Shown one piece after another: positions 3,730-35,264 of a DNA stretch of 64,000 nt (its first letter is position 1; each line of letters opens with the position of its first letter). The notes under the pieces were generated by a model. That model searched no databases. It had not been told where the DNA came from and was given only the letters and a program-made list of their open reading frames with translations. The translations under genes were made by a program, and so were the position numbers. Source of the DNA: Clostridia bacterium (GTDB lineage Bacteria > Bacillota > Clostridia > TANB77 > UBA1234); the NCBI GenBank assembly GCA_017469565.1, contig JAFUGC010000003.1:13656-77655 (forward strand), in the 5' to 3' direction.

Positions 3730-3745
3730 AAAGGAGGGGTAGTCA

Positions 3746-5830
3746 GTGATTATGGGTAACGATTTAAACAGAATTGGTATTTATATTTCTAAGCTAGCCC
3801 CGAATGACACATATAAGGCTGCTTTAGAAAAAGAGTATCATTTTTATCGGGAAGTTTTAGAGGCTTTTCCGGCAGATTCTGCTCTGCCGGAAGAGCTTAT
3901 TTCGAGCATTTATTCTTTGCTTCAAAGAATCAAAAACTATGTGGTTTTTGGTAACACCAGTAATCCTTTAGTGCCTATCGTTCCCTATATGACAGAGCTG
4001 ATTGACTGTGAAAATGACAAAGAAAAAATCATTGCAAAAGCCAAGACAAATCCTTCCTTTATTGCTAATAGAAGGCAGAAACTTGCTATTTTCAAACAGC
4101 TTTTAGATGCCATTGACTATGGCGGAGAAAGAAAGGATATTCGGGGAACCATCGATCTTGCCACTACAGAATATGAAAAGAGTAATATTTACGCAAGTGA
4201 TTTTGAGCAAGAAATTGCCAAGGCAAAGTATTTTTATATGATAAGACTAATCATGGATGATGCGATAGACGATGCCAATATACTTGCACAAGATTTTGAG
4301 ACAGATATGCTTCTTTTTATGCATCTTAGGCATAAGGATAGTGTTTCACATCTTTTAAAAGAAAGCAAAGCGATGCTGGCAAATGAAATGTATCATTTTT
4401 TAAATGAGTTCCAGGATGGTAAGATTCATGATATTGAATTTTGGAAGATTCTCGCACAAATTGAAAATCCGGAATGGATGCTAAAAGAAGAGAGAAAAGA
4501 AGAAAAGAATCAAGAAGAATTGGAAAATGAAACTTCCTTGGAAGAATTGATAATGGACAAAGAGCCTGCAACAAGCAAGCACAGTTTATTTGAAGTCATT
4601 TCAAGAAAACGGATAGAAAGAAAATTCTATACGGTAGTTTCAGAAGAACACGAATATATCCATATTACTTTGAAACATTTTCAGGGATTTATCATGCCTA
4701 AAGCGGAAATAAAAAAGCTTAATCATTTTTTAAGGAAGCTGGGAGGCTCTCATGGAGAGCATTATAAAACAATAACAATTCAAACCTTTGCTTACAATAA
4801 AGTTCATAGCTATGATTTACGGGATACTCTTTCGATTCGTCATGTGATTGAGTGTATTAGCTATTATCTGCCATCTTCACAATTGGTTCTTGATTTTTCT
4901 TACTGTCATACAACTCACATTCCTCAAGAATTTTTTGAAAATCTAAGCATTACAAAAGTGGTGTTACCATACGATTTGCAGGTGATAGAAGATTTTGCTT
5001 TTCATGGTTGCAAAGAATTAGAAGAAGTTATCTTTCCTGAAAAGTTGCTTGAGATTCGCACGGGAGCATTTCTCGGGTGTTTCAAATTAAAACAAGCAGA
5101 CTTAAGTAAAACATCACTGAAAAAGAATGGCTTGAAAAATAGATGCTTTGAAAGTTGCACTGACCTTGAAAAAGTTCTTTTTAATGATGAATTACAAGTA
5201 ATTGGTGAGGAGGCATTTAGATGTTGTGAGTCACTAAGGCAGATTTCATTGAAAAATGTTTCCATTATTGAGCCATATGCATTTTTGTATTGTTACCACT
5301 TAGGAAAAGTAGAAGAAACGCAAAACTTAACAATGATAGGGACAAGTGCTTTTAAAGAATGTAAAAATCTTAAGCATTTTAATTTTCCAACCTATTATGA
5401 TGAAACAGAACTTATCATTGAAGAAGAAGCCTTTGCTTTAAGCGGACTTAAAAAAATGTATATGGATTGCATCCACTTAAGTATAGGGGAAGGCATTTTC
5501 AAAAACACTAATTTGAAGAAAGCTGAGATTCATAGCACTATCACAAGTCTTCCAGAAAGTACTTTTGAGGGATGTTCCGAATTAGAAGAAGTCATTTTAC
5601 CCGCTAATCTAGAAACGCTAGAAGAGGGCTGTTTTAAGGAATGCATTTCTTTAAAAGTGATAGATCTTCCAAAATCTTTAAAAAGAATTAACCGAGATAG
5701 TTTTAGAGATTGTGAAGAAATTGAAATGATTCATTTTTCAGGACAGCTTGAATATGTTGGAGATAATGCCTTTTGTGGCTGCGATGCTTTAGACCTGAAA
5801 AAACTCAACTTTATGACACCAATAGACTAA
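3746..5830 (+). CDS. BspA-type leucine-rich-repeat protein, paralog B
   Basis: 694-aa ORF with AAGGAGGGG RBS. The N-terminal ~250 aa are collinear with paralog A (FWKVLAQIENPEY / FWKILAQIENPEW). The C-terminal LRR_5-like repeats read AF.GC..L..v.lP. Confidence 0.75.
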   Translation: MIMGNDLNRIGIYISKLAPNDTYKAALEKEYHFYREVLEAFPADSALPEELISSIYSLLQRIKNYVVFGNTSNPLVPIVPYMTELIDCENDKEKIIAKAKTNPSFIANRRQKLAIFKQLLDAIDYGGERKDIRGTIDLATTEYEKSNIYASDFEQEIAKAKYFYMIRLIMDDAIDDANILAQDFETDMLLFMHLRHKDSVSHLLKESKAMLANEMYHFLNEFQDGKIHDIEFWKILAQIENPEWMLKEERKEEKNQEELENETSLEELIMDKEPATSKHSLFEVISRKRIERKFYTVVSEEHEYIHITLKHFQGFIMPKAEIKKLNHFLRKLGGSHGEHYKTITIQTFAYNKVHSYDLRDTLSIRHVIECISYYLPSSQLVLDFSYCHTTHIPQEFFENLSITKVVLPYDLQVIEDFAFHGCKELEEVIFPEKLLEIRTGAFLGCFKLKQADLSKTSLKKNGLKNRCFESCTDLEKVLFNDELQVIGEEAFRCCESLRQISLKNVSIIEPYAFLYCYHLGKVEETQNLTMIGTSAFKECKNLKHFNFPTYYDETELIIEEEAFALSGLKKMYMDCIHLSIGEGIFKNTNLKKAEIHSTITSLPESTFEGCSELEEVILPANLETLEEGCFKECISLKVIDLPKSLKRINRDSFRDCEEIEMIHFSGQLEYVGDNAFCGCDALDLKKLNFMTPID

Positions 5831-8435: not shown

Positions 8436-9581
8436 GTGGTGAGTGATGTGCGTTATAGCGGAACCTTAATAGATGAAAATCAAAAAATATTAAGTTTAAT
8501 TAGCCATGAATACGTTAAGCTTGACTTTTCAAGCCTTTCATCACTTTCTGTCACAAATTGGAATGAACCTAGTTTCATGGATAATTACGTTTTAATTTAT
8601 AAAGCTAATCTTCCAGCAGATATTACTATTTATAATATTTTGCTAGAAAAATTATCATCAAAAATATTTTTATTCACATATATAAATTCCTCAGATACAT
8701 ATATTGCTAATGCAGACGCATTCATGATTAGAGCTTATGTTAATTACTTAATCACCAAAGAGCCAGTAGAATATTATATAAGAGCACAGTTTTTACCGAA
8801 TAAAGAGTATGCAAAAGAAATACTTAAGGTAAATAAATTTACGGATTGTGGTGTTAATGTTGAACATTTGGGGAAAAATAAGTTCCAAATTACTCCATTG
8901 AACATTACTTTTGAAAATATGGAAGGGGCAAAAAGTGTATATCATGATTTGCTTGATTTGAATGATTTTTGTAAAGATGTAAATATGGATAAAGGTATCA
9001 TTCTTGCAAATTATGAATCTGTTCAAAAACTTAGTAAAGATAAAAGAATGCTTGCTACACTTAGTAATATTAAAACTTATTTTGGCTGTCAATTCAACAT
9101 GAAAAATGGTAATATTATTTTTGATGGAACAGAGTATATGATAAATGATGAAGAATCTGCTACAGCATTTCAAGCAAAAGTGATTGATGCGTATCACTTT
9201 TTTAGAAATGTAATTAACACAAAAGATAAAAAGGATATTATCAGTGAAATCTATAATCAAAAGGTTTCCACTGAAATAAAGAAGGAATTCTTAGGAAATA
9301 TGGCTTCCTATATAAATGCTACCAAAAATCAGGAACTTGTTGATTGGATTGTTACAATCTCGAAAGAAAGCAAATATACATTGCCTATATCTTATGATAC
9401 ACAAGGGATATTCTATATAGATGGTGCTATCATCGTAACTCCTTTAGATGCAAAAGAATATTATATAGATTATATGGATAAGCAAAGAGAGAAGTTAGCA
9501 ATGATTATTTACAAGAATAATATTATTGGTAAAATCAAGAGAATTTGGGATAAATTCAGAGCAAGATTTGCAAGAGCATAA
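8436..9581 (+). CDS. hypothetical protein (orphan, very AT-rich)
   Basis: 381-aa ORF with a GTG start region after GGGTGGTGAG. No motif recognised. Confidence 0.5.
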   Translation: MVSDVRYSGTLIDENQKILSLISHEYVKLDFSSLSSLSVTNWNEPSFMDNYVLIYKANLPADITIYNILLEKLSSKIFLFTYINSSDTYIANADAFMIRAYVNYLITKEPVEYYIRAQFLPNKEYAKEILKVNKFTDCGVNVEHLGKNKFQITPLNITFENMEGAKSVYHDLLDLNDFCKDVNMDKGIILANYESVQKLSKDKRMLATLSNIKTYFGCQFNMKNGNIIFDGTEYMINDEESATAFQAKVIDAYHFFRNVINTKDKKDIISEIYNQKVSTEIKKEFLGNMASYINATKNQELVDWIVTISKESKYTLPISYDTQGIFYIDGAIIVTPLDAKEYYIDYMDKQREKLAMIIYKNNIIGKIKRIWDKFRARFARA

Positions 9582-9586
9582 ATTTT

Positions 9587-9663
9587 GCAAGAGGCGCAAG
9601 AAGAAGCGAACAACCGGGGACAACCTTTTTTGTCCCTGGTTGTTCGCTTCTTGCGCCTCTTGC
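9587..9663. terminator. very long hairpin (34-37 nt arms) between convergent genes; GGGAC-core repeat family
   Basis: GCAAGAGGCGCAAGAAGAAGCGAACAACCGGGGACAA - CCTTTT - TTGTCCCTGGTTGTTCGCTTCTTGCGCCTCTTGC, with one mismatch and one 3-nt bulge. Confidence 0.85.
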
Positions 9664-9665
9664 AT

Positions 9666-9950
9666 TTATTTATTCGCGATGATTACTTCGTTATCATTTG
9701 TTTCTTCAATCTCACTATTTGGGGATTTTTCGTCATTTGTTGAACTGTTTTCTTCTTGCTTTATGCTTCCGCTCGTGGTATATACTTTCCCACCAGTACT
9801 AGTATTCTTGGCAGTTTCAGTATTATTAGCGGCTTCAACAACAGAAAGATTATAATCTCTAAATATATAGTCCATAAAGTTGTTGCCAGCTACAACACCG
9901 GCAGAAAAAGAAAAAACAGTTATAAACAAAAGAATTATTTTCTTAGTCAT
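9666..9950 (-). CDS. small secreted or membrane-anchored hypothetical protein
   Basis: 94 aa with an N-terminal hydrophobic segment KKIILLFITVFSFSAGVVA. GGGGGAAAC RBS region. Confidence 0.5.
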   Translation of the reverse strand: MTKKIILLFITVFSFSAGVVAGNNFMDYIFRDYNLSVVEAANNTETAKNTSTGGKVYTTSGSIKQEENSSTNDEKSPNSEIEETNDNEVIIANK

Positions 9951-10190
9951 AAAAGTTTCCCCCTATAAAGTGATAGAAATAATCACATATTTAATTCGCA
10001 ATCATTATTATAGCACGGCTTATAAACTTATGTCAACAAAATAATATAGATATTTTATGAAAGTAGGAATCTTTAAGTAGGTATTTACACTTTTTCCTCC
10101 GTCCCTAATTTGTCCACCTTGCTATTTACATTTAAAAAATAATGTGCTATAATGACTCTTGTCTTAAGATAGAAAAAAGGTTATAATCAT

Positions 10191-10316
10191 ACCGTAAAGT
10201 GTGTTTATATGAATGGTGGTCAAGGAAAGACTATGAACCTTGTCAGGTCCGGAAGGAAGCAGCAATAAGTAGATCCTTTTTTGTGATACACCATTCATAT
10301 AAGCGTATTTTACGGT
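10191..10316 (+). ncRNA. ffs: signal recognition particle RNA (small/4.5S-type)
   Basis: Contains the conserved domain IV sequence GTCAGGTCCGGAAGGAAGCAGC. The long closing helix is ACCGTAAAGTGTGTTTATATGAATGGTG...CACCATTCATATAAGCGTATTTTACGGT, followed by a T-run. It sits in the canonical position upstream of dnaX. The 5' end is approximate. Confidence 0.75.
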
Positions 10317-10343
10317 ATTTTTTATTAAGGGTGGGGGAATGGT

Positions 10344-11762
10344 ATGTCTTATGTAGCTTTATATAGGCAGTTTAGGCCTAAGGTTTTTGAAGATGTTGTG
10401 GGGCAAGAACATATTACTAAAACTTTAAAAAATCAAATAAAAAGTGGCAGGGTGGCGCATGCTTATCTTTTTAGTGGAGGCAGAGGTAGTGGAAAAACTA
10501 GTACGGCTAAGATATTGTCAAGAGCAGTAAACTGCTTAAATCCAAAAGATGGTGAGCCTTGTAATGAATGTGAAATATGCAGACAAGCCTTAGAAGGAAC
10601 TTTAACAGATATCAGTGAAATTGATGCGGCATCGAATAATGGCGTTGATAATATTAGAGACATTCGAGAAGAAGTTGAATTTATTCCTACAAATGCTAGA
10701 TACAGGGTTTATATTATTGATGAGGTTCACATGCTTTCTACAGGTGCATTTAATGCTCTACTAAAAACATTAGAAGAACCACCTAAACATGTGATATTTA
10801 TTTTGGCTACCACGGAACCTCAAAAACTTCCTATCACCATACTTTCAAGATGTCAGAGGTTTGATTTTAAGAGGATTTCGGTAGAGAATATTATTAAAAG
10901 GTTAAATATCATTTGTAATGAATCGCATATCAAAATTGAAGAAGGTGCTCTTAAGATTATTGCAAAAATGTCTGACGGTGCAATGAGAGATGCCATTAGC
11001 ATATTAGAAAGATGTGTGGCAGATGGAGAAGATATCATCACAGAAGAAAAAGTAAGGGAACTTGTTGGAATTCCGGAATTAGAGTATTTATTAGAAATAT
11101 CAAAGAATCTGATGTTAAATGATGCTGCTCAGGTATTGGAAAGTGCAGAAAAAATCATTAATGAGGGAAAAGATTTAGAAATATTCACTTGGGAGCTTAT
11201 TAAGTTTATGAGAGATCTCATTATGCTTCAGATTTCAGATAATTTAGTACTTTATAAAGAGGATGAAAAAGTGAGAATGAGAGAACTGCTTAAGTTCACC
11301 GATAAGGAAAGATTGTTACGTTTGATTACGGATTTGTCATCCCTTCAGAGCAGCATGAAATGGGCATCGGACAGGGAAGTGATATTTGAAACAGGGCTGA
11401 TTAAGATTGCTTATGAGGGCAATCGTAATCAAATGCTTTCTCATGTAGGTATTTCTCAAAATGTGTCGGCCAAGGCAAATGGAAATGCCTCAGTTCCTCA
11501 GGAAAGTAATACATCAGATAATGAACTAAAAGAGAAAGTTCTATCAATATTAAAAGAAAATCGAAAAATGATTATGCACACAATTTTGACAGGGGCAGAA
11601 ATAAAAGTTGCGAGTGAAGACCTTGTGCACATTATTTTTGGAGCATCGATTGATGATGTTAACAAACAATATATGCAAAAAGAAGAGAGTAAAGCAGTAA
11701 TCAAAGAAACAGTAAAAAATGCTCTTCATAAGGAAATGAAAATTAAATATGTATTTGGATAA
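10344..11762 (+). CDS. dnaX: DNA polymerase III subunit gamma/tau
   Basis: AAA+ clamp-loader motifs GGRGSGKTS, zinc module CNECEIC, DEVHML, SRCQRF. Confidence 0.95.
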   Translation: MSYVALYRQFRPKVFEDVVGQEHITKTLKNQIKSGRVAHAYLFSGGRGSGKTSTAKILSRAVNCLNPKDGEPCNECEICRQALEGTLTDISEIDAASNNGVDNIRDIREEVEFIPTNARYRVYIIDEVHMLSTGAFNALLKTLEEPPKHVIFILATTEPQKLPITILSRCQRFDFKRISVENIIKRLNIICNESHIKIEEGALKIIAKMSDGAMRDAISILERCVADGEDIITEEKVRELVGIPELEYLLEISKNLMLNDAAQVLESAEKIINEGKDLEIFTWELIKFMRDLIMLQISDNLVLYKEDEKVRMRELLKFTDKERLLRLITDLSSLQSSMKWASDREVIFETGLIKIAYEGNRNQMLSHVGISQNVSAKANGNASVPQESNTSDNELKEKVLSILKENRKMIMHTILTGAEIKVASEDLVHIIFGASIDDVNKQYMQKEESKAVIKETVKNALHKEMKIKYVFG

Positions 11763-27349: not shown

Positions 27350-27958
27350 GTGATCACCGAAAAGAATAAAGAAAATATCATAAAAGGATTAGAGGCTGAG
27401 CTTGAAAATGGCACATTTTATCAAGTGAATCAGTGGGATGTGCTTGCAAACACTGACACGGATTTTTATCATGATGTTTTTGATTTATCTACATCAAAAA
27501 GTTATGCTACCCCTGAGTTTAAGGGTGTTGGGCTGTTTAGACCGCTTGTAAGTAATGAGTTTAATCCTTTAAATAGCACGGTTTATAATTATAAGGCAAG
27601 CTATGAGGCACCGGTACATGGAATGGCGTTTACTGGTAAGAATGGAGAGTATGTGGAGTCACATTATCTTTCCGGATTGAATTTAGGAGCAAGCATCACC
27701 AATGAGTTTGGTACAGTTACAGTGGAAGCGCCGGTTACTCATATAGATATGAAAATTAATAATATGGGTACGGATGATAATGTTCAAGTAAATATGGCTG
27801 ATATTCTACCAAATACCCAAACTGCTAATGTGATAGATTTTGCATCGGTTCCACAAGAACTTGCACTTGCCAAAAGAAATCATTGGAAAGATATTCTATT
27901 TATGGATGTGGATATTATAGGCAGTGTAAAGAAACTTTGGAAAAATATTTCTGTATAG
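27350..27958 (+). CDS. hypothetical protein
   Basis: 202-aa ORF with a GTG start after AGAGGGGG. No motif recognised. Confidence 0.45.
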   Translation: MITEKNKENIIKGLEAELENGTFYQVNQWDVLANTDTDFYHDVFDLSTSKSYATPEFKGVGLFRPLVSNEFNPLNSTVYNYKASYEAPVHGMAFTGKNGEYVESHYLSGLNLGASITNEFGTVTVEAPVTHIDMKINNMGTDDNVQVNMADILPNTQTANVIDFASVPQELALAKRNHWKDILFMDVDIIGSVKKLWKNISV

Positions 27959-27983: not shown

Positions 27984-28018
27984 AAGTGTGTAAGTGATTT
28001 TACTTACACACTTTTTTT
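27984..28018 (+). terminator. rho-independent terminator
   Basis: AAGTGTGTAAGT-GATTTT-ACTTACACACTT followed by T5. Confidence 0.85.
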
Positions 28019-28024
28019 GCTTTT

Positions 28025-28054
28025 GATGCTTTCGGAAGGTGTCCCCAAAAACAT
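28025..28054. repeat. solo copy of the GGAAGGTGTCCCC repeat arm found at 5869..6100
   Basis: GATGCTTTCGGAAGGTGTCCCCAAAAACAT compared with GATGCTTTTGGAAGGTGTCCCCAAATGCAT (6019..6048); about 27 of 30 positions identical by eye. Confidence 0.8.
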
Positions 28055-28066
28055 TTTTGAAATTTG

Positions 28067-28095
28067 TTGCTTTTTATGTTAATCCCTGATAAAAT
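28067..28095 (+). promoter_or_regulatory. sigma-A-type promoter of the PK-like/PurA-like operon
   Basis: TTGCTT - 17 nt - TAAAAT. Confidence 0.55.
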
Positions 28096-28148
28096 GAATC
28101 CGCAATTGAATTGGTTTTGGGTAGTCTTTGTTTTTTGTTAAATGAAGA

Positions 28149-29093
28149 ATGAAAAAGGAGGAATGTTTTTTGAAACGGGATTGTAGACTTATTGCAACGC
28201 TACCTTCATTGAGTAATTTGAAAAAGGTGCAAGAGGTTTTTGAGAGTGATTGTGTAGATGAAGTAAGGTTTAATACGGGAGTGCATGTGCCTTTTGCGGC
28301 GGAAGAAGCGCTGGATATTTTACAAAGGTTGTCACTGAAGTATGATAAGAAACTTTGGATTGATGTGAAGGGCAGGCAGCTTAGGATTAGCAAGTGGGCG
28401 GATCCTTTGTATTCTTGCATTGAACTCAATCACCATGTGGAGGTTTTATATCCGGCAGAGGTTTGTTTTAGAAATGGTGATCGGGTGAGAATTGCCCATA
28501 TCAAAGATGGAAATAAACTTTTTGTGGAACCGCTGCCCAAAGAGGCGCTTGGTGCAGGGCAGTCTGTGAATATTATTGGGAGAGATGTTGAGATTGATGG
28601 TTACTTAACGGAGAAAGATAAAGAGTACTTAACTGCTTGCGCTAAGCTGGGTATGCCTTGGATTATGGCTTCTTTTGTAGAAGAGTTCTTGGATTTCATG
28701 GAGATTTTGACGCTCCAACCGAATGCTCAAATTATGGCTAAAATTGAGTCACTCAAGGGAATGGAGCTTGTGACAAGGCATCCATCTGTACTTATGGAGA
28801 AGTTTAACATTTTTTCTCTAATGGCTGCGAGAGATGACCTGTATATTCAGACAGGTGAAAATTGCAGCATGTTAAAGCATTTGAAAGCAATTGTTGATGT
28901 GGACAGTGGGGCAGTTTGTGCATCCCGGATTTTCCCTTCTTTGGAGAGAAGGCAAACGCCTGAGTTTGCAGATTATGCGGACTTGGAACTCATGTATAGC
29001 ATGGGCTATCGGAGGTTCATGCTGTGTGATAACATATGCAATTACCATTTTGAAAAAGCAATCAAAGCATGGAAGGAGTTTCAGCATGGATAG
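28149..29093 (+). CDS. pyruvate-kinase-like TIM-barrel protein lacking the C-terminal regulatory domain
   Basis: Collinear with PK barrel motifs: RLIATLPS (cf. KIVCTIGP), VRFNTGVH (cf. ARLNFSHG), IDVKGRQLRI (cf. LDTKGPEIR), LTEKDKEYL, IMASFVE (cf. IAASFVR), IMAKIESLKG (cf. IIAKIENQEG), MAARDDL (cf. VARGDLG). The likely true start is TTG 28170, 8 nt after AAGGAGG. Confidence 0.65.
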   Translation: MKKEECFLKRDCRLIATLPSLSNLKKVQEVFESDCVDEVRFNTGVHVPFAAEEALDILQRLSLKYDKKLWIDVKGRQLRISKWADPLYSCIELNHHVEVLYPAEVCFRNGDRVRIAHIKDGNKLFVEPLPKEALGAGQSVNIIGRDVEIDGYLTEKDKEYLTACAKLGMPWIMASFVEEFLDFMEILTLQPNAQIMAKIESLKGMELVTRHPSVLMEKFNIFSLMAARDDLYIQTGENCSMLKHLKAIVDVDSGAVCASRIFPSLERRQTPEFADYADLELMYSMGYRRFMLCDNICNYHFEKAIKAWKEFQHG

Positions 29094-30549
29094 TTATGTA
29101 TTATGTGGAATGCAGTTCGGTGATGAAGGAAAAGGTACGTTTGTTGACTATATGTCACATAGAGAAGACGCGGATGCCGTTGTCCGGTATAACGGAGGTT
29201 CACAGGCATCGCATACGGTGGTGACTCCAAGTGGAACGCTTCATAAGTTTAGTCAGTTAGGTTCCGGAATGTTTTTGGAAAATTGTCACACATATATTAC
29301 GGAAAACACTGTGGTGAACCTGGATAATCTTATGGTGGAGTTGAAGGTTTTTTCGGAAAAAACTGGTATTTCTGTTTCTGAACTCATCAATCGGATTCAC
29401 ATTCATGAGAATTGTTTTGTGGTAACGCCTTATCACAAGCTGCTGAACAAGCTAAGAGAATTGTCATTGGGAGAAAACCGCAGAGGAACGGTTGGCACTG
29501 GTGTGAGTGAGGTCCGGTATGTGTTGGAAGAGTCTCAAAATTTTCCGCTTGAGCCATCCTTAGGGGTTCAAGTAAAAGATATTTTTGATTCTCGTGGTAT
29601 TCGTCCACTCCTTGCTGGTTTCATGGGGCTTCATGAGTATGTGAGTGCGTTCTATCAGGAAAATCAGGAAGTGATTTGGAAAAATACTCCTGAGGAGATG
29701 AAAGAGGGTTTACAGAAAGAGATAGATTCTTTGCTTTCTGGACAAGTTTTTAATCTTACTAACATTTATAGAAGATACTTTAATACGGTACCACGAGAGT
29801 TTAACCTGAAAAGATGTATTTATAGTACTTATGAACAGTCTTTGCACGCAAACTGTAAGAAGGTGATTTTTGAGGGGTCACAGGGACTTTTGATTGATGG
29901 TAAATATGGCATCAAGCCGAATACCACTTTTCTGGATACCACCAATCAGTTTGCTTTGAGGATAAGTAGGTACACGGACCATGTGACAAAGGTTGGTATC
30001 GTGAAGGCTTTTAGCTCTCGGCATGGACCAGGTATATTTCCCACGGAATCAGAGGAAGTGAGCAGTAAGATTCAAGACCCAAATCAGGAGGAATCTTTCT
30101 GGAATGGTAAGATTCGTTTTGGGTGGCTGGATGTGGTGCTGCTCCGGTATGCACAGCACATCAACCAGGTGGATGAGCTTTATTTGTCTTCCTTGGACCT
30201 GCTGGATGATTTTGAGGAACTCAAAATTTGTGTTGGTTATATATACGATGGCAAGGTAGATGAAGAATTCAATCGGACTTTCGAATATGTTGATATGTTG
30301 GACGGTAGGAAGTATATTGATGATATTGTGATGCCCAGTGACAGGCTGGGAGAGTACTTGAAACTTTGCGTTCCGGATTACATGTGCATCAGAGGCTGGA
30401 AGAAGGATATTTCTCAGGTGACTGATCAGGAGGAACTGCCAGTTCGGTGTAGAAATTACATTGGCTGGCTGGGACGTCTTATGAATCTTCCTGTTACGGT
30501 GGTGTCTGTGGGACCTACTCGGGAAAACAAGATACGAATGGATTCTTAG
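29086..30549 (+). CDS. divergent adenylosuccinate synthetase (PurA) family protein
   Basis: Start ATG 29086 (GGAAGGAG RBS) overlaps the upstream stop by 8 nt. PurA motifs present are QFGDEGKG, RYNGGSQASHT, FEGSQGLLID, VKAFSSRHGPGIFPTE, FGWLD, SSLDLLD and VSVGPTRE. The Arg-rich loop before GWLD is degenerate (WNGKIRF). Confidence 0.8.
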   Translation: MDSYVLCGMQFGDEGKGTFVDYMSHREDADAVVRYNGGSQASHTVVTPSGTLHKFSQLGSGMFLENCHTYITENTVVNLDNLMVELKVFSEKTGISVSELINRIHIHENCFVVTPYHKLLNKLRELSLGENRRGTVGTGVSEVRYVLEESQNFPLEPSLGVQVKDIFDSRGIRPLLAGFMGLHEYVSAFYQENQEVIWKNTPEEMKEGLQKEIDSLLSGQVFNLTNIYRRYFNTVPREFNLKRCIYSTYEQSLHANCKKVIFEGSQGLLIDGKYGIKPNTTFLDTTNQFALRISRYTDHVTKVGIVKAFSSRHGPGIFPTESEEVSSKIQDPNQEESFWNGKIRFGWLDVVLLRYAQHINQVDELYLSSLDLLDDFEELKICVGYIYDGKVDEEFNRTFEYVDMLDGRKYIDDIVMPSDRLGEYLKLCVPDYMCIRGWKKDISQVTDQEELPVRCRNYIGWLGRLMNLPVTVVSVGPTRENKIRMDS

Positions 30550-30572
30550 AGAGAAGAAGAGGAGGATTATGC

Positions 30573-31175
30573 ATGAAAGATAAGCTTTATGAAGAGATTG
30601 ACCGGCGTATTACCACTGGTCAAAAGGTGAATGTGCTGATTGCTGGGATGACCTGTTCCGGAAAGAGCACTCTTGCCAGAGAAATTCAGGAGCATTATGT
30701 GTTTGGAAAGCATCCTAAACAGGTGTCTATTATTTCTCAGGATTGTTACTTTAAAAATTTAGGATTGATTCCTAGAAATAAAGGCGGCTATTTGATGGAT
30801 TCTCTTTATGCCTTTCATGCAGATGAGTACCGGGCTCATGCACAGTATCTGACTCAACATGGAACGGTGAGAGTGCCTCAGTATGACATTGCCAGAAATA
30901 AAAGGACGGCGGAATACACTAAAATTGAAAATGGAGATATTAATATCTTTGAGGGTTTGCATAGCATCCGGATATTAAGTGGACTGTGGCATAATGTAAA
31001 AGTCTATTTGGATACTGATGTAGAAACCTGCCTGGAAAGAAGGATTGCAAGGGATACGTCTTTATATGACGTGCCGGAGGAGCGCATTCGTGAGTACTGG
31101 GCGGAGTGTATTATGCCCTTAAGTAGAGAGTTCATTTTCCCGCAAAAGGAAATGGCGGATTGGATTATCAGCTAA
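30573..31175 (+). CDS. uridine kinase / phosphoribulokinase-family P-loop nucleoside kinase
   Basis: Walker A GMTCSGKST, plus SQDCYF, FEGLHS and RRIARDT, collinear with Udk. Confidence 0.75.
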   Translation: MKDKLYEEIDRRITTGQKVNVLIAGMTCSGKSTLAREIQEHYVFGKHPKQVSIISQDCYFKNLGLIPRNKGGYLMDSLYAFHADEYRAHAQYLTQHGTVRVPQYDIARNKRTAEYTKIENGDINIFEGLHSIRILSGLWHNVKVYLDTDVETCLERRIARDTSLYDVPEERIREYWAECIMPLSREFIFPQKEMADWIIS

Positions 31176-31189
31176 AGGGGGAAATGCTT

Positions 31190-32236
31190 ATGACGGTTAA
31201 GGAAATTTATGAAAGGCTGCTGAGGGCCAAACGGCCGGTGGATTTTTTTGGTGAGGCTACCACGGAAGAGGAGCTGAAAAGGTTCTATAAGGATTTTGCC
31301 AAAAAGGTTCATCCGGATTTAGTGCCTGACTGTGACAGGTATCTTGCCGGTGAGGCGTTTTCTGTGCTGAATAGACTTTATCATTTGGGTCTTGCTGAGT
31401 TCCAACAGGGCATTTATGGCGTAATTGACCAGGTGCAACTGTATTCGCATCAGTCGCCGCTGTTTGAAATCACGGCTGGAGGAAAGCGGTATCAGTTTTT
31501 TGAGAATGTGTTTGAAGGCGAGGTTGCCTATCTTTTTAAGGGGAAGTCGGCCGATGATGATATTGTGTATCTGAAAGTAGCGATTGACCCAGCAGACAAT
31601 GAACTGATTGACACGGAGTATGATGTGCTTTCCACGCTTAGGCATCAGTCTTTTCCATATGTGGAACAGAAAATTCAGGTGAATGATACCAGGGCCATTT
31701 TGATGCGAGAGGTGAAGGGCATTACTATGCTGGAGCTTTTGGAGCAATATCCGCATGGTGTGCCTGCAGAGCATGTGATGTGGATGCTGGAGCGCCTGCT
31801 GAGTGCTGTGGGGTATCTGCATGCTAACTTTGTGGTGCATGGGAATATCAAGCCGGAAAATATCATCATTAACAAGGAAAATCATAATGTTTCCTTGGTT
31901 GGTTTTTCTTTCTGTATTCCTAAGGCGAATACCCCAGAGGCAAAGTACAAGATTCAAAATGATAATTATTCTGCTCCTGAGGTAAGTGCGGATGCCACGG
32001 TTTATCCGGCATCGGATGTATATTCGGTTGGCAAAATTGCGATTGCGCTTTTAGGAGGTGCCGTTTCTTCTTCTGGAATGCCCATTTCCGTGAATGCGAA
32101 AGTGAGGGCGTTTATCCGGAAAATGGTGAATCCTTCTATGATGGATAGACCAGACGATGCCTGGAAACTCTGGACGGAGCTGATTGAGCTCAGAACGGAA
32201 GTTTTTGGAACTCAGCGGTTTCAAAAATTGGACTGA
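31190..32236 (+). CDS. J-domain protein fused to a Ser/Thr-kinase-fold pseudokinase
   Basis: J-domain with the HPD tripeptide (FAKKVHPDL). The kinase fold has VYLKVAI (beta3 Lys), SAPEV and SDVYSVG, but the catalytic loop reads VHGNIKPEN (HRD Asp replaced by Asn) and the DFG position reads VGFSF (Asp lost). Start ATG 31190 is 8 nt after AAGGGGG. Confidence 0.75.
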   Translation: MTVKEIYERLLRAKRPVDFFGEATTEEELKRFYKDFAKKVHPDLVPDCDRYLAGEAFSVLNRLYHLGLAEFQQGIYGVIDQVQLYSHQSPLFEITAGGKRYQFFENVFEGEVAYLFKGKSADDDIVYLKVAIDPADNELIDTEYDVLSTLRHQSFPYVEQKIQVNDTRAILMREVKGITMLELLEQYPHGVPAEHVMWMLERLLSAVGYLHANFVVHGNIKPENIIINKENHNVSLVGFSFCIPKANTPEAKYKIQNDNYSAPEVSADATVYPASDVYSVGKIAIALLGGAVSSSGMPISVNAKVRAFIRKMVNPSMMDRPDDAWKLWTELIELRTEVFGTQRFQKLD

Positions 32237-32292
32237 GAGTGTGTTGGTTGAACATGACGCATGAAACAAATTAGTATAAGGAGGAAATCACA

Positions 32293-33243
32293 ATGGGTGG
32301 AAGCAGCTATGACCGGGATGTGTACAGTGGTAGCTCTAGTTCAGGCTGGGGTGCTAGTTCTTATTCAGCAATGAAGATGGGCAGTAGCACTTTGGATAGC
32401 TCCCTGAGGGCTAATGGTAAGATTCTGAAAAGTACAAGCAAGAATCCTATTATTGTGGTGCTGGATGTGACTGGCTCCAACATTGATTTTGCCAGATTGG
32501 TTTATGACAAGATGCCGATGTTTTATGGGCAGATTGAGCAGAAGGGGTATTTGGATGACTTTGATATTGCTTTTTGTGCGGTGGGTGATGCCTACACGGA
32601 TGATTATCCTTTGCAGATAGGTGATTTTGCAAAGGGGATTGCTTTGGACTCCCAACTGGAAAAGTTAGTGCTGGAGGGTGCTGGCGGAGGCCAGAGGAAG
32701 GAGTCTTACGAGCTTGCCGCTTATTATCTGTATAAGAATGCGGAGTTTCCACCGGGCAGTAAGCCTCTCATCTTCTTTATTGGAGATGAGGCACCTTATC
32801 CTAAGGTGAATGAGGTTCAGGCTCAGGAGTTTGGCATTGACTGCACTGAAGGTAATGTGGAGCCTTTTGAGCTTTTGCGGAAGAAGGTAAATGACAATGT
32901 CTTTATGCTCTTGAACAAGTATTGCAGTAGGAGTTTTGAAAGTGACATTACAGAGGCGTGGACCACGCGGTTGGCGCCAGAACATGTGATTAAGATTCAG
33001 GAGGAAAAGGCGATTGTGGACCTGATGCTGGGCATTATCTCCATGGTTTCGAATGCGAGAACGCTAGAGACTTATAAGGTGGATATGCTGGATAGAGGGC
33101 AGACACAGGAGCGGATTGCCGGTGTTTCGGAATCGCTTCAGAATTTTTCAAAGGTCACATCGATTGTGCCTGTGAAGGTGTCTGGGATAATTCCCAAGGC
33201 TTCCGGTGGGAAGCAAAGCACTCAGAAGGGCAAACGCCTGTAA
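32293..33243 (+). CDS. von Willebrand factor A (vWA) domain protein
   Basis: MIDAS-like IIVVLDVTGS, later FFIGDEAPY, and the beta-alpha-beta periodicity of vWA. TAAGGAGGAA RBS. Confidence 0.7.
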   Translation: MGGSSYDRDVYSGSSSSGWGASSYSAMKMGSSTLDSSLRANGKILKSTSKNPIIVVLDVTGSNIDFARLVYDKMPMFYGQIEQKGYLDDFDIAFCAVGDAYTDDYPLQIGDFAKGIALDSQLEKLVLEGAGGGQRKESYELAAYYLYKNAEFPPGSKPLIFFIGDEAPYPKVNEVQAQEFGIDCTEGNVEPFELLRKKVNDNVFMLLNKYCSRSFESDITEAWTTRLAPEHVIKIQEEKAIVDLMLGIISMVSNARTLETYKVDMLDRGQTQERIAGVSESLQNFSKVTSIVPVKVSGIIPKASGGKQSTQKGKRL

Positions 33244-33253
33244 GATGAATTTT

Positions 33254-33287
33254 GGTGGTACACTTATTTTAGTGTACCACCTTTTTT
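33254..33287 (+). terminator. rho-independent terminator ending the five-gene operon
   Basis: GGTGGTACAC-TTATTTTA-GTGTACCACC followed by T6. Confidence 0.85.
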
Positions 33288-33329
33288 GGCACTTTTTGTT
33301 GTTTTTTGATGCTTTTTCTATTTATGTGC

Positions 33330-33358
33330 TTGACATAATGATGGGCAAAATATATAAT
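33330..33358 (+). promoter_or_regulatory. consensus sigma-A promoter for the 473-aa orphan
   Basis: TTGACA - 17 nt - TATAAT. Confidence 0.7.
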
Positions 33359-33410
33359 AACAAGGCTAAATATGTTACTTTAGGACCAACCATTATTAAG
33401 GAGGTAAAAT

Positions 33411-34832
33411 ATGGGTATTCGAAACTGGTTAAACCGCAGGCGTGAGATGGAAGACGGACTGGATGATGCGGCTGTTACTAGTTCAACTGGTTCAACCACT
33501 TCAACCGCTTCAACCGTGAATGACACTTCTTGTCATGTGAAGGTTCCCGAGAAGGTGGAGAATCTTCCGCAGATAGAGCGTGAGGCACTTTACCGGTGGA
33601 GCAAAGTGTTTTTGGGAGAAGTGGCGAGTGCAGATTATACCAAGCGGTTTGTGAAGTCCCTGAATATCAGCCCGTATCATATGGGAGATACTTATTGGAA
33701 TGTTAAACAGGAAGAAATGGAAAGGATTGGCTGTCTGACGGAGTGCTACCGGGCGTGCATCAGCAGAGTCTTTGCAGAGAATAATTTTCTGGCCGGCCCT
33801 GAGATGCTGGAAGAACTCATACGGGTTGTCACGGCAAATCTGGTAAGTCGCATGCTTCAGGAAACAGATATCACTTATGATTATGATCTGTCTGAGTATG
33901 AGAAAGAGATTTTTCAGTTTGGTTCAGAGCTTTTGAAGGCGGTTTATTGGGTGGCCACCGAGAATGTGGTGGATTTTGTTAGTCTTTACGAGAAAATCAA
34001 TCACGGTATTGATTTCAGGCTGAAAAGCATGTATGGGCCGGAGATTACATACCGGTATACTTACCTTATTCCGGCGGAGTATCTGTTTGAACTTCCTGAT
34101 TTTGTTTATGAAAAGAGATTGGGCAGTATTCAAGACAGGATGGAGGCTGTTCATGATGTGGAAGCCATCATTAGTGGAGTTCTTTCTCGGGATAATGATA
34201 TTGGTGATGGCGCAGTATACCTTTCCAAGCTTAAGGAATTCATGATAAAAGAAAAGGAGTTTCTGACACTGGATTTTGAGCATATTCTGTTCCAGTATTT
34301 TGAAGAGTTTAAAGAGGAGAACGAATTAACGTCCTATAACTTTTATGCTTATGGGATACATGACCTGATTGCTGCTATTCCGCAATATTTCCCGGAAATG
34401 ATTGTGGAGTCTTTTGAGTATCAGCTGGCAATGATGCAGCGTGTTTATGTATGCCAAGATGAAGTGGAGATGTTTGAAGAGGATCTGGTGGATCTGTATG
34501 AACGCATCGTCATTTATCGGAATTATAGAGCGGAAGATTTTCAGGTAACTGATTCTGATTCCTGGAAAGCAACTATTAGTAGTTTTTTTGAACTGGGGCT
34601 TTCGGGGTATGCACTGACCAGAATTTCGGATTTGCTCACGGATGGTTTAGGCGTGAGCAGAGATGAAGTGGAAGCGTACATTGAGAGTCTGACCCGGGAT
34701 TATTTGGATGATTGCTACTGGATTGGTACGGATGAGGAGAGCCTCATTCATATGATTCGGCTGCTGTCTAATCCTGTTGTTTACCGTGTGATTGAAGAAG
34801 AGAAGCCGGCCATCATTGACTGCTTCTGGTAA
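33411..34832 (+). CDS. hypothetical acidic, probably all-helical protein (473 aa) linked to the island
   Basis: AAGGAGG RBS. It has the same GC-rich composition and CGG usage as the preceding operon. It has an S/T-rich linker near the N-terminus and no recognisable motif. Confidence 0.55.
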   Translation: MGIRNWLNRRREMEDGLDDAAVTSSTGSTTSTASTVNDTSCHVKVPEKVENLPQIEREALYRWSKVFLGEVASADYTKRFVKSLNISPYHMGDTYWNVKQEEMERIGCLTECYRACISRVFAENNFLAGPEMLEELIRVVTANLVSRMLQETDITYDYDLSEYEKEIFQFGSELLKAVYWVATENVVDFVSLYEKINHGIDFRLKSMYGPEITYRYTYLIPAEYLFELPDFVYEKRLGSIQDRMEAVHDVEAIISGVLSRDNDIGDGAVYLSKLKEFMIKEKEFLTLDFEHILFQYFEEFKEENELTSYNFYAYGIHDLIAAIPQYFPEMIVESFEYQLAMMQRVYVCQDEVEMFEEDLVDLYERIVIYRNYRAEDFQVTDSDSWKATISSFFELGLSGYALTRISDLLTDGLGVSRDEVEAYIESLTRDYLDDCYWIGTDEESLIHMIRLLSNPVVYRVIEEEKPAIIDCFW

Positions 34833-34841
34833 GAATTTTGT

Positions 34842-34877
34842 GGTGGAGGAAAACTTGTTTCCTCCGCCATTTTTTTG
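34842..34877 (+). terminator. rho-independent terminator
   Basis: GGTGGAGGAAAC-TT-GTTTCCTCCGCC followed by ATTTTTTT. Confidence 0.85.
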
Positions 34878-34904
34878 TTCGCCCTAATTTTTTTGGAAAA
34901 AGGC

Positions 34905-34933
34905 TTGACAAGTGGGAAAAATCGTTGTAAACT
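34905..34933 (+). promoter_or_regulatory. sigma-A-type promoter of ylxM-ffh
   Basis: TTGACA - 17 nt - TAAACT. Confidence 0.6.
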
Positions 34934-34958
34934 ATTTGAGGTTTACAGGAGGTGGCAT

Positions 34959-35264
34959 ATGGAGAAGAATATTCGTGTTAGTATGCTCACAGAAATGTAT
35001 GGCAAATTGCTTACAGATAAGCAGTTTGATGTTGTTGATTTGTATTATAACAATAACCTATCACTTAGTGAAATTGCGGAAGAGCTTGGGATTACTCGTC
35101 AAGGGGTGCGCAAGATTTTGGTAAGTGCTGAGAATCATTTGTTTGAAATAGAAGAAAAATTGGGTTTCTTAGAGCAAAAGTTGCAGCAAAGAAAAGTTTT
35201 GAGTGAAGTGATTCGTCAAACAGAAGATAAATGGATAAAAGAAAAATTAACCAATTTATTATAA
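34959..35264 (+). CDS. ylxM: YlxM/p13-like putative DNA-binding protein (UPF0122)
   Basis: HTH region LSLSEIAEELGITRQGVRK, in the conserved position immediately upstream of ffh. ATG 34959 follows AGGAGGTGG. Confidence 0.85.
   Translation: MEKNIRVSMLTEMYGKLLTDKQFDVVDLYYNNNLSLSEIAEELGITRQGVRKILVSAENHLFEIEEKLGFLEQKLQQRKVLSEVIRQTEDKWIKEKLTNLL

Follow-up and report, generated by a model that had tools for sequence, protein, structure and literature searches.

A gene in the stretch of Clostridia DNA analyzed here (64 kb; the window) encodes a stand-alone pyruvate kinase (PK)-like protein, PKL, which from its sequence, profile and fold is a member of the PK superfamily. Its residues mark it as a stripped-down PK-type enzyme whose catalytic center is intact, and we tentatively favor the view that it is a catalytically competent, minimal PK-type phosphotransferase that would pass the phosphoryl group of PEP to nucleoside diphosphates (NDPs), converting GDP to GTP for the partner protein encoded by the adjoining PurA-like gene (PurAL). 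PKL is the first of five genes, followed in order by PurAL, a Udk-like kinase, a predicted J-domain pseudokinase, and a vWA protein with a MIDAS motif, which together form a terminator-bounded cassette. The core of an earlier, sequence-only reading of this DNA, a stand-alone PK-like barrel without the allosteric C domain and coupled to the PurA-like gene, was borne out by our analysis; however, the five-gene cassette with its vWA partner had been missed. Although few enzymes have been studied as thoroughly as pyruvate kinase, a search of the literature revealed no description of the cassette or of PKL, which represents a distinct stand-alone PK subfamily of ∼300 aa.

The PKL open reading frame (positions 28149 to 29093, forward strand, as are all features given below) was confirmed as real and comprises 314 aa. 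A ribosome-binding site and probable start were read from the sequence at 28157 to 28172, with GGAGG at 28157 to 28161 located 8 nt upstream of an in-frame TTG at 28170. Since an identical public protein (P0001, from a Clostridia bacterium MAG) has a length of 307 aa, TTG 28170 is the likely start. The range of 307 to 314 aa proposed earlier matched both the open reading frame and the public protein. Likewise, the reported overlap of the PKL stop with the PurAL start was seen directly in the sequence: the TAG at 29091 to 29093 and the ATG at 29086 to 29088 (not 29087) overlap within ATGGATAG.

PKL matched the Pfam model of the PK barrel, PF00224, with 40.6 bits (gathering score, 30; E = 2.1e-10), and when the family profile was compared to the PDB, the best 60 matches were all PKs (top E = 3.6e-18). 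The barrel is a (beta/alpha)8 A domain, the fold of which is nearer to PK than to other PEP/pyruvate barrels, with PKs ahead of lyases by ∼6 Z units and ∼80 extra aligned residues. The score against the pyruvate kinase equivalog model TIGR01064 (NCBIfam) was 40.8 bits and thus below the cutoff of 306.4. The chain terminates at residue 307, after the final barrel helix, a Pfam search yielded no match to the C-terminal PK domain PF02887, and the PurAL start overlaps the stop, all in agreement with the previously claimed absence of a C-terminal domain. At the position of the B domain, PKL has a 72-aa all-beta segment of eight strands (approximately residues 71 to 142). Sequence alignment matches the second half of this segment to the PK B domain, which makes the "short insert" described earlier a trimmed lid domain rather than a loop.

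Canonical PKs (EC 2.7.1.40; PF00224 plus PF02887), such as E. coli PykF, the yeast enzyme (1a3w), and the Leishmania enzyme (3e0v), share only 16 to 21% identity with PKL. In contrast to these, PKL lacks the C-terminal allosteric/tetramerization domain, has a lid of ∼72 aa instead of ∼100 aa, and carries replacements of the lid lysines, of Ser, Thr, and Glu at the K+ site, and of Gly in the ARGDLG motif. Its gene is moreover found next to vWA, J-domain kinase, and PurA-like genes and not next to glycolytic genes. A PK chain from Entamoeba histolytica (8iw2_A, 321 residues), which is either a natural enzyme devoid of the C domain or a truncated construct, is similarly short and shares 17% identity with PKL.

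Among 97 family members, taken from four types of genomic context, the invariant or almost invariant positions were R33, N35, D65, K67, R69, Q70, R72, G130, S168, K191, E193, G197, A220, D223, S252, and D287. Among these, R33, N35, D65, K67, R72, K191, E193, and D223 were kept in 96 to 97 of the 97 members, which bears directly on the K/R/E/D catalytic set whose conservation the sequence-only reading had proposed to check, and S252 stands in for the proton-relay Thr of PK in 96 of them. In HMMER alignments, the conserved set maps to R32, N34, D66, K68, R73, K220, E222, D246, and T278 of E. coli PykF, whose roles in the PK active site, in contacting PEP/phosphate and Mg2+ and in phosphoryl transfer, are established. 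These catalytic residues are retained at overall identities between 25 and 67%. Other parts of the site have changed. PKL reads AARDDL where PK has ARGDLG, an alteration that had already been recognized, and the Gly of this motif is Asp in all PurAL-linked members. The lid lysines of PK (the KKGVN stretch) correspond to G130-Q/E131 (G130-Q131 in the protein of the window), the K+-site Glu to Q70, which is directly preceded by the invariant R69, and the K+-site Ser and Thr to G37 and L/V66 (V66 in the window). Since several residues of the PK nucleotide and K+ sites have been replaced throughout the family, PKL may use an acceptor other than a plain NDP and may differ in its K+ dependence.

Whether PKL is a PK or an HpcH/CitE-type protein had been left open, and is now largely settled in favor of PK by the profiles, the PDB matches, the phosphoryl-transfer residues, and the lid, a domain that to our knowledge is absent from the lyases of the PEP/pyruvate-binding superfamily. 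No Pfam match to a lyase or PEP mutase was obtained at an E value of 0.1 or better, and profile and fold evidence together lead us to reject an identity as HpcH, CitE, or PEP mutase; neither the profile match nor the lid-free barrel of an HpcH/HpaI aldolase or CitE lyase was found. With all sequence and profile matches being PKs, and with invariance of both the lid domain and the Arg/Lys residues that bind phosphate, we consider it very unlikely that PKL acts as a C-C lyase or aldolase (HpcH/CitE-like) or as a decarboxylase instead of a phosphotransferase. Even less credible is that PKL serves as a noncatalytic scaffold or senses a ligand, or that it is what remains of a decayed housekeeping pyk, as could be suspected from the missing C domain and the score far under the equivalog cutoff. 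The family comprises 248 cluster representatives (50% identity; E of 0.001 or better), with nearly all of the 150 listed being ∼300 aa long, and a genome scan located it in at least 337 species genomes from many phyla, as well as on large phage contigs. In addition, its catalytic residues stay invariant over the identity range given above, and its coupling to the neighboring gene is tight and conserved. No further PK remnants were detected near the gene or elsewhere in the 64-kb window, and a disrupted housekeeping pyk, which the sequence-only reading had named as a possible refutation, was thus ruled out. The subfamily retains its entire catalytic core, whereas the allosteric domain has been lost, and control appears to be exerted in trans by the vWA protein and the J-domain (pseudo)kinase.

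PurAL (29086 to 30549; 487 aa) starts 8 nt inside PKL and matches PF00709 (E = 8e-80). With 235 bits versus a cutoff of 402 for PurA, it scored under every PurA and PurZ equivalog cutoff. PDB alignments and a motif census indicated that it shares with adenylosuccinate synthetase PurA and phage PurZ the PurA fold and the catalytic Asp/His, retaining the GTP P-loop GDEGKG, H41, Q224, D333, and SxGP. It differs from both by N38Q, by GSCGTG in place of GTTGRG, and by a remodeled aspartate loop, which reads SFWNG-KIRF in the window where PurA has GATTGRRRR, and which across the family is an aromatic FWQG-KFRF. Because of these three changes, the substrates of PurAL are uncertain; its conserved GTP-site residues imply that it should release GDP. 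A PurZ/Z-base pathway was ruled out, as the PurZ model gave 51 bits (cutoff, 300) and neither MazZ nor DatZ was present. Of ∼66 loci, 35 have an 8-nt overlap between the PKL stop and the PurAL start and a further 7 have one of 4 nt, with these loci spread over different phyla, and from this conservation we infer that the two proteins may be coexpressed stoichiometrically.

The third gene (30573 to 31175; 200 aa) encodes a ribonucleoside kinase-like protein of the Udk/NRK superfamily (PF00485, E = 4e-17), with UCK2/UCK1 (E = 6e-16) as the best PDB matches, followed by NRK1 (E = 2e-5). The fourth (31160 to 32236, with ATG 31184 or 31190 as the likely start) codes for a protein kinase fold (Pkinase, E = 6e-20) with a weakly matching J domain (DnaJ, E = 3e-4) that contains the HPD motif. 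In the window, this protein has HGN for HRD and GFS for DFG and is predicted to be a pseudokinase; in a motif census of ∼75 homologues, the HRD Asp was missing in all that are linked to PurAL. The fifth gene (32293 to 33243) encodes a protein of the vWA fold in which the MIDAS motif (DxTGS...SYE...GDE) is conserved. Since searches by sequence gave no family assignment for it, fold comparison was required. Across the family, the vWA gene adjoins PKL almost always. The cassette is delimited by two terminator-like hairpins: one upstream (27984 to 28013; 13-bp stem followed by a T run), which closes a 202-aa orphan gene, and one downstream (33254 to 33281; 11-bp stem with 6 GC pairs and a T run), 11 nt past the vWA stop. 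Its GC content of 40 to 46% exceeds that of the flanks (35 to 38%), which consist of housekeeping operons (clpC, ffh). The 202-aa and 473-aa open reading frames flanking the cassette had no relatives in any locus compared.

Cassette and family members are hosted by many bacteria, some archaea, and phages. Frequent neighbors of PKL are NadE (or NadE-NadD), NMNAT, PncA, and the repressor NrtR, which responds to ADP-ribose (ADPR). Type B loci have the order PncA, NadE-NadD fusion, in some cases a Udk-like gene, J-domain pseudokinase, vWA, PKL, and PurAL, and Chloroflexi loci have the order NMNAT, vWA, PKL, and NadE. In four Type A Firmicutes loci (L036, Clostridium sp.; L040, an unassigned bacterium; L045 and L048, Bacilli), nrtR lies directly upstream of PKL, and in one Tenericutes locus (L038) a single small open reading frame is located between the two. 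Nudix and ADP-ribosylglycohydrolase genes recur nearby, and the cassette is retained in reduced CPR and DPANN genomes, within NAD-salvage operons and under NrtR. On one phage-like contig (L101), PKL is fused to a QueC-like PP-loop amidoligase, followed by a NadR-RNK-like kinase. At two loci (L001 and L003), transposase fragments adjoin the cassette. Antisense open reading frames in high-GC Chloroflexi loci (families f190, f175, and f113) and in CPR (f308) had no PDB matches; those from Chloroflexi are probably shadow open reading frames. Those Clostridia cassettes that are nearest to the one in the window had no NAD genes within 8 kb.

Starting from this fold, family placement, residue conservation, gene coupling, and set of genomic associations, we propose that PKL would move the phosphoryl group of PEP onto an NDP, with the translationally coupled, putatively GTP-dependent ligase PurAL as its immediate client, whose GDP would be turned back into GTP. 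A second client could be the Udk-like nucleoside kinase, with ADP being returned to ATP. PKL would be free of built-in allosteric control, and the vWA protein and J-domain (pseudo)kinase might instead provide regulation in trans, by scaffolding, by sensing, or by recruiting chaperones. The module as a whole may be a unit linked to nucleotide or NAD salvage, a link that for the Clostridia cassette of the window is drawn from its relatives. Consistently, the neighbors of PKL are NTP-consuming nucleotide enzymes: PurAL, the Udk-like kinase, NadE, NadE-NadD, NMNAT, and the L101 fusion with its kinase. However, GTP recycling for PurAL cannot be the universal role of the family, because ∼200 Bxz1-like mycobacteriophages have PurAL but no PKL, and Chloroflexi and large phage contigs have PKL but no PurAL. 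Simple NTP regeneration also leaves the invariable pairing with vWA unexplained. The PP-loop partners of PKL (NadE, QueC-like) release AMP and PPi, neither of which PK can recycle. Recurrent neighbors of PKL are a neofunctionalized PurA paralogue, NAD synthetase, NMNAT, nicotinamidase, and a repressor that senses ADP-ribose, which suggests that nucleotide/NAD salvage includes an energy-coupling or biosynthetic step that has gone unrecognized. As a minimal, unregulated PK, it might also serve as a compact NTP-regeneration enzyme.

It is possible, albeit improbable in our estimation, that PKL phosphorylates a non-NDP acceptor (ribose-5-phosphate, ADP-ribose, NMN/NaMN, or NAD+) from PEP or another donor and, together with PurAL, fills a missing Preiss-Handler step. 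The gene orders of the Type B and Chloroflexi loci place beside the cassette all Preiss-Handler steps except nicotinate phosphoribosyl transfer, and the cassette would then be a new way to rebuild NAD+, induced by ADPR and independent of PRPP or PncB. The recurrent NrtR, Nudix, and ADP-ribosylglycohydrolase genes, the family-wide replacement of the ADP-serving lid lysines and K+-site residues, the aromatic aspartate loop of PurAL, and the L101 gene arrangement are all compatible with such a role. However, this support is purely contextual, we know of no glycosyl-transfer chemistry in the folds of PurA or PK, the Clostridia subtype of the window lacks NAD genes nearby, and the published phage pathways of NAD+ reconstitution rely on unrelated enzymes: NARP1, NARP2, and NARP3 employ Adps plus Namat, NamPT plus Nmnat, or PnuC plus a NadR-like protein. 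As all of these are absent from the cassette, it is not itself one of the NARP systems. With a similarly low expectation, PKL, PurAL, and the Udk-like kinase, held by the vWA protein and J-domain pseudokinase, may make up an unrecognized PEP-powered pathway, induced by ADPR via NrtR, that rebuilds or buffers NAD+ or makes an NAD-related nucleotide while bypassing the phosphoribosyltransferase step. If so, it would be common to CPR, DPANN, Firmicutes, Chloroflexi, Acidobacteria, and large phages. Phage-host conflict has come to be seen as revolving around NAD salvage, and such a pathway would be a new player in the host-virus tug-of-war over NAD+.

We also regard as rather doubtful that the cassette is a conflict system of the TerY-P kind, serving antiphage defense or phage counterdefense/takeover, in which the vWA protein and J-domain (pseudo)kinase would sense infection and the Udk-like kinase, PurAL, and PKL would produce a toxic or signaling nucleotide analogue triphosphate or drain a metabolite pool. 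Modules of vWA and Ser/Thr kinase are already known as defense/signaling units, and a modified NTP could plausibly be reached through a succession of nucleoside kinase, base-modifying ligase, and NDP kinase-like enzyme. The unrelated genomic contexts, adjoining transposase fragments, elevated GC content, and related modules on large phage contigs and in the Bxz1-like phages fit this idea as well, as does the resemblance of the kinase domain to the PADLOC defense kinases MkoA (E = 6e-22) and PD-T4-6. However, these PADLOC matches are generic and none were obtained for PKL, PurAL, or vWA, so that a known defense system was ruled out; the window flanks are housekeeping operons and not a defense island; and upkeep in reduced genomes, within NAD-salvage operons and under NrtR, looks metabolic. 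The TerY-P triad reportedly described by Anantharaman et al. in 2012 consists of a TerY vWA protein, a PP2C phosphatase, and a Ser/Thr kinase. According to PMC11090510, stand-alone defense activity of TerY goes back to Gao et al. 2020. Like that triad, the cassette pairs a MIDAS vWA protein, possibly of the TerY type, with a protein kinase fold, is combined with variable "payload" genes, and occurs on mobile elements and in phages. In contrast to it, the cassette kinase has an N-terminal J domain, lacks the zinc ribbon and OB fold, and, with HGN/GFS in the window and without the catalytic Asp wherever PurAL is present, does not qualify as an active Ser/Thr kinase; no TerY-type PADLOC match was found, the payloads are nucleotide enzymes, and there is no PP2C phosphatase among the five cassette genes. 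A dual-specificity phosphatase is present in one phage-like locus (L017).

Part of the module is found in the same order in Cluster C1 (Bxz1-like) mycobacteriophages, e.g., as LinStu gp257, gp258, and gp260, which are annotated as "kinase," "hypothetical protein," and "PurA-like / 2-aminooxy adenylosuccinate synthetase." These phages encode the J-domain pseudokinase of the cassette (HPD, HGA), its vWA-like MIDAS protein, and PurAL of the same subtype (GSCGKG, TRHGNG, and an MWQG-KFRQG loop), but, unlike the cassette, neither a PK-like nor a Udk-like gene. Since the ∼200 phages that carry the pseudokinase, vWA, and PurA-like genes are cultured, the biology of the module is experimentally tractable.

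The pyruvate-kinase-like gene (PKL; 28149 to 29093, + strand) reads as a 314-amino-acid (aa) open reading frame (ORF) in the window sequence. Since a public protein of identical sequence, encoded by a "Clostridia bacterium" metagenome-assembled genome, comprises 307 aa, and a GGAGG box (28157 to 28161) is located 8 nt upstream of an in-frame TTG at 28170, this TTG is the likely start codon. The stop codon (TAG, 29091 to 29093) is part of the octamer ATGGATAG, whose ATG starts the gene for a 487-aa PurA paralogue (PurAL; 29086 to 30549, +). The stop-start overlap described in the sequence-only reading is therefore genuine, although the ATG is at 29086 and not at 29087. The overlap comprises 8 nt in 35 of ∼66 loci and 4 nt in 7 more.

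PKL and PurAL belong to a cassette of five co-directional, tightly packed genes between two terminator-like hairpins (27984 to 28013 and 33254 to 33281). They are followed by a Udk/NRK-superfamily nucleoside kinase gene (30573 to 31175, +; best PDB matches UCK2/UCK1, E 6e-16; NRK1, E 2e-5), a protein-kinase-fold gene whose product has a J-domain-like N terminus with an HPD motif (31160 to 32236, +), and a gene for a 316-aa vWA protein without Pfam matches (32293 to 33243, +). The GC content of the cassette is 40 to 46%, compared to 35 to 38% in the flanks, and housekeeping operons surround it (lexA and ctsR-mcsA-mcsB-clpC upstream, ffh-rimM-trmD downstream). ORFs of 202 aa (27350 to 27958) and 473 aa (33411 to 34832) flank the cassette on either side; neither had a match in Pfam, PADLOC, NCBIfam, or PHROG or relatives in ∼100 related loci. 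The cassette and the 473-aa ORF (together ∼28000 to 35000) share raised GC and a reversed AT skew; the 473-aa ORF is preceded by a perfect sigma-70 consensus (12/12; 33330 to 33358), and the 202-aa ORF is situated in an upstream bin of 35% GC.

PKL is a member of the pyruvate kinase (PK) superfamily. The Pfam PK barrel model matched with 40.6 bits (curated cut-off, 30; E 2e-10), and no lyase or PEP-mutase family of Pfam matched at E ≤ 0.1. All NCBIfam matches were pyruvate kinase models and scored far below equivalog level (40.8 versus 306 bits). A PDB search with a profile of 58 diverse members returned pyruvate kinases for all of the best 60 matches (best E, 3.6e-18). Among 1.8 billion cluster representatives, 248 relatives were found at E ≤ 0.001; almost all of the 150 listed were ∼300 aa long, indicating a stand-alone family rather than a fragment, and no further PK-like remnant was present within the 64-kb window. 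In a confident AlphaFold2 model (pLDDT, 96.5; pTM, 0.93), residues ∼71 to 142 form eight beta strands, and the second half of this segment can be aligned with the PK B domain sequence. Hence, what had been taken for a short insert is a trimmed lid domain. As had been proposed, a C-terminal domain is absent, since the polypeptide stops behind the last barrel helix.

The PK motifs occur in the order originally described: VRFNTG, IDVKGRQLR, AKIESLKG, MAARDDL, and CASR align with RLNFSHG, LDTKGxEIR, KIENxEG, MVARGDLG, and ATQ of PK, respectively. Alignment of 97 family members from four kinds of genomic context showed conservation of the catalytic K/R/E/D set, with R33, N35, D65, K67, R69, Q70, R72, G130, S168, K191, E193, G197, A220, D223, S252, and D287 being invariant or nearly so. 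In HMMER alignments, the conserved residues have as E. coli PykF equivalents R32, N34, D66, K68, R73, K220, E222, D246, and T278, residues established in the PK active site as binding the phosphates of PEP and nucleotide as well as Mg2+ and assisting phosphoryl transfer. The two lid lysines of the PK KKGVN stretch are replaced by G130 and Q/E131, and the Ser, Thr, and Glu positions of the K+ site by G37, L/V66, and Q70, the last preceded by the invariant R69. The change of ARGDLG to ARDDL noted in the window protein was found in every PurAL-linked member, while most phage and minimal versions keep the Gly; G37/Q131 versus A-V37/E131 covary with Asp versus Gly at this position. Judged from the alignment, the phosphoryl-donor half of the active site looks intact, and the acceptor/monovalent-cation half is reshaped. 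A bona fide pyruvate kinase was rejected based on equivalog score and C domain; the lid lysine and K+ site positions also depart from PK. Overall, the reading of a PK-like barrel coupled to a PurA-like gene proved essentially right.

PurAL retains the GTP P-loop, H41, Q224, D333, and SxGP. Its changes relative to E. coli PurA, taken from an alignment that agrees with PDB alignments, comprise N38Q, TRVGAG to TRHGAG, GTTGRG to GSCGTG (the consensus of the family; the window protein has GTVGTG), and a family-wide replacement of the aspartate loop GATTGRRRR by (N)FWQG-KFRF. The protein did not reach any of the equivalog cut-offs for PurA and PurZ, and its loop signature recurs in "PurA-like" genes of Bxz1-like mycobacteriophages. 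It probably does not act simply on IMP and Asp. In locus L004 (9838 to 12083; also L005, 8331 to 8957), the five-gene cassette is followed, 2 kb further downstream, by another vWA-like gene, which is shorter (315 aa), and then by another PurA-like paralogue of 407 aa that carries this loop signature.

The kinase-fold protein of the window is a predicted pseudokinase, as HGN replaces HRD and GFS replaces DFG, eliminating both catalytic Asp residues, and the glycine loop is degenerate. Among ∼75 homologues, the HRD Asp was missing in every PurAL-containing cassette and also in three or four loci without detected PurAL (L050, L060, L063, and L072), and phage triads without PurAL had a canonical kinase (GGFG, HGD, and DFG). 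The HPD motif was retained almost everywhere.

Other gut Clostridia have these five genes in unrelated genomic surroundings, and when one genome per species was scanned, the PKL family was detected in at least 337 genomes. The best 80 of these belonged to Clostridia, Bacilli, Tenericutes, CPR/Patescibacteria, DPANN and Methanosarcinales archaea, Acidobacteria, Leptospiraceae, Proteobacteria, Chloroflexi, Planctomycetes, and Myxococcota. Further members were encoded on 15 IMG/VR contigs (several of 200 to 440 kb) and by one 485-kb uncultured phage. A gene-order census revealed four arrangements: PKL-PurAL-Udk-pseudokinase-vWA in Firmicutes, including the window (type A); [Udk]-pseudokinase-vWA-PKL-PurAL in CPR, Acidobacteria, archaea, and Proteobacteria (type B); a minimal vWA-PKL in Chloroflexi; and kinase-vWA-PKL in large phages. 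PKL nearly always adjoins either PurAL or the vWA gene. J-pseudokinase, vWA, and PurAL without PKL are found in ∼200 cultured mycobacteriophages of cluster C1 (Bxz1-like). Therefore, the vWA and J-(pseudo)kinase pair is the constant core, on which PKL, PurAL, and the Udk-like kinase are payload enzymes. In L013, a contig classed as viral, an EF-G gene (8843 to 10924) directly follows the kinase-vWA-PKL triad; this contig could be of cellular origin or belong to a huge phage with translation genes.

After clustering and annotation of the remaining neighbours, a glutamine-dependent NAD synthetase was found across five phyla, in 28 PKL loci. Type B loci often encode a version of 820 to 860 aa (proteins of this size in L046, L047, L050, L053, L059, L061, L062, L068, and L073), and the one tested (L055, 825 aa) was a NadE-NadD fusion. 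This apparent fusion of CN-hydrolase and PP-loop domains with a C-terminal NadD (2547 to 5024) lies beside the cassette and would unite the final two steps of NAD synthesis in a single protein. In Chloroflexi, an archaeal/NadM-type NMN adenylyltransferase gene immediately precedes vWA-PKL-NadE. Nicotinamidase PncA, scoring above its equivalog cut-off, was another recurrent neighbour. The ADP-ribose-responsive repressor NrtR was present in 10 loci, directly upstream of PKL in type A Firmicutes (L036, Clostridium sp.; L040, unassigned bacterium; L045 and L048, Bacilli) and separated from it by one small ORF in Tenericutes (L038). Nudix proteins recurred as well, and three CPR loci and as many viral contigs encoded ADP-ribosylglycohydrolases. 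In the phage-like L101 (4358 to 7556), a vWA-like gene, a 568-aa fusion of PKL to a QueC-like PP-loop amidoligase with an SGGLDS motif (P0215), and a NadR-RNK-like P-loop kinase gene follow each other among NrdD, thymidylate-synthase-like, and dCTP-deaminase genes. Taken together, these neighbours connect the family with nucleotide/NAD salvage and with amidoligases, enzymes that use NTP to activate a carbonyl or carboxyl group. No NAD genes were found within 8 kb of cassettes in the Clostridia subtype closest to the window, for which a NAD link would rest on homology to other subtypes.

The data show the fold and family placement of PKL, its gene coupling and genomic associations, and an invariant catalytic core. 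We infer phosphoryl donor, acceptor, and regulatory logic as follows, and tentatively favour this reading at somewhat below even chances: PKL would be active as a PK-type phosphotransferase and, with PEP, would regenerate NTP from NDP for adjacent NTP-consuming enzymes, in the first place GTP from GDP for the translationally coupled PurAL, and the vWA protein and J-(pseudo)kinase would replace the missing allosteric domain in trans. However, the acceptor and K+ half-site is reshaped, a PK cannot recycle the AMP and PPi that the PP-loop partners yield, PKL may be found without PurAL and vice versa, and the vWA partnership is left unexplained. A PEP-dependent step on a NAD- or ADP-ribose-related acceptor, filling the absent PncB-type step among the clustered Preiss-Handler genes, is rather unlikely. 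We give similarly little credence to a TerY-P-like conflict module that makes or drains a nucleotide. The vWA and kinase pair of the cassette resembles the TerY-P triad (PMC11090510), but the cassette lacks its PP2C phosphatase and, as predicted, an active kinase, and has a J domain. Lyase chemistry, the other option initially proposed, is very improbable, and an HpcH/CitE identity was rejected because no Pfam lyase family matched at E ≤ 0.1 and the best 60 PDB profile matches were all pyruvate kinases. A non-catalytic role of PKL seems less credible still, next to an invariant catalytic core.

Two viral contigs have arrangements that echo Ter/TerY-P-type and MoxR-vWA-type systems: in L017 (9160 to 9585), the triad is accompanied by a dual-specificity phosphatase and AAA+ ATPases, and in L007 (2736 to 5934) by an AAA+ ATPase together with a weakly TelA-like protein. 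The enzymes of the published phage NAD+ pathways NARP1-3 differ from those of the cassette. The widespread module around PKL appears undescribed, as a full-text literature search retrieved no description of the PK-like family or the cassette; a prior mention in a 2012 paper on Ter systems is possible. We consider the conserved cassette and its NAD/ADP-ribose-linked neighbourhoods a more interesting result than PKL itself, whose function is now directly testable by assays and Bxz1-like phage genetics.

Study of the module would be possible in the cultured C1 mycobacteriophages. In Mycobacterium phage LinStu (L104, 149023 to 152739), for example, it is represented by gp257, gp258, and gp260. The C1 gene order is J-pseudokinase, vWA-like, small ORF, and PurA-like, and the annotation goes no further than "kinase," "hypothetical protein," and "2-aminooxy adenylosuccinate synthetase." The announcement of phage Pinkcreek lists simply a "serine/threonine kinase" and a "PurA-like adenylosuccinate synthetase" (PMC9476963).
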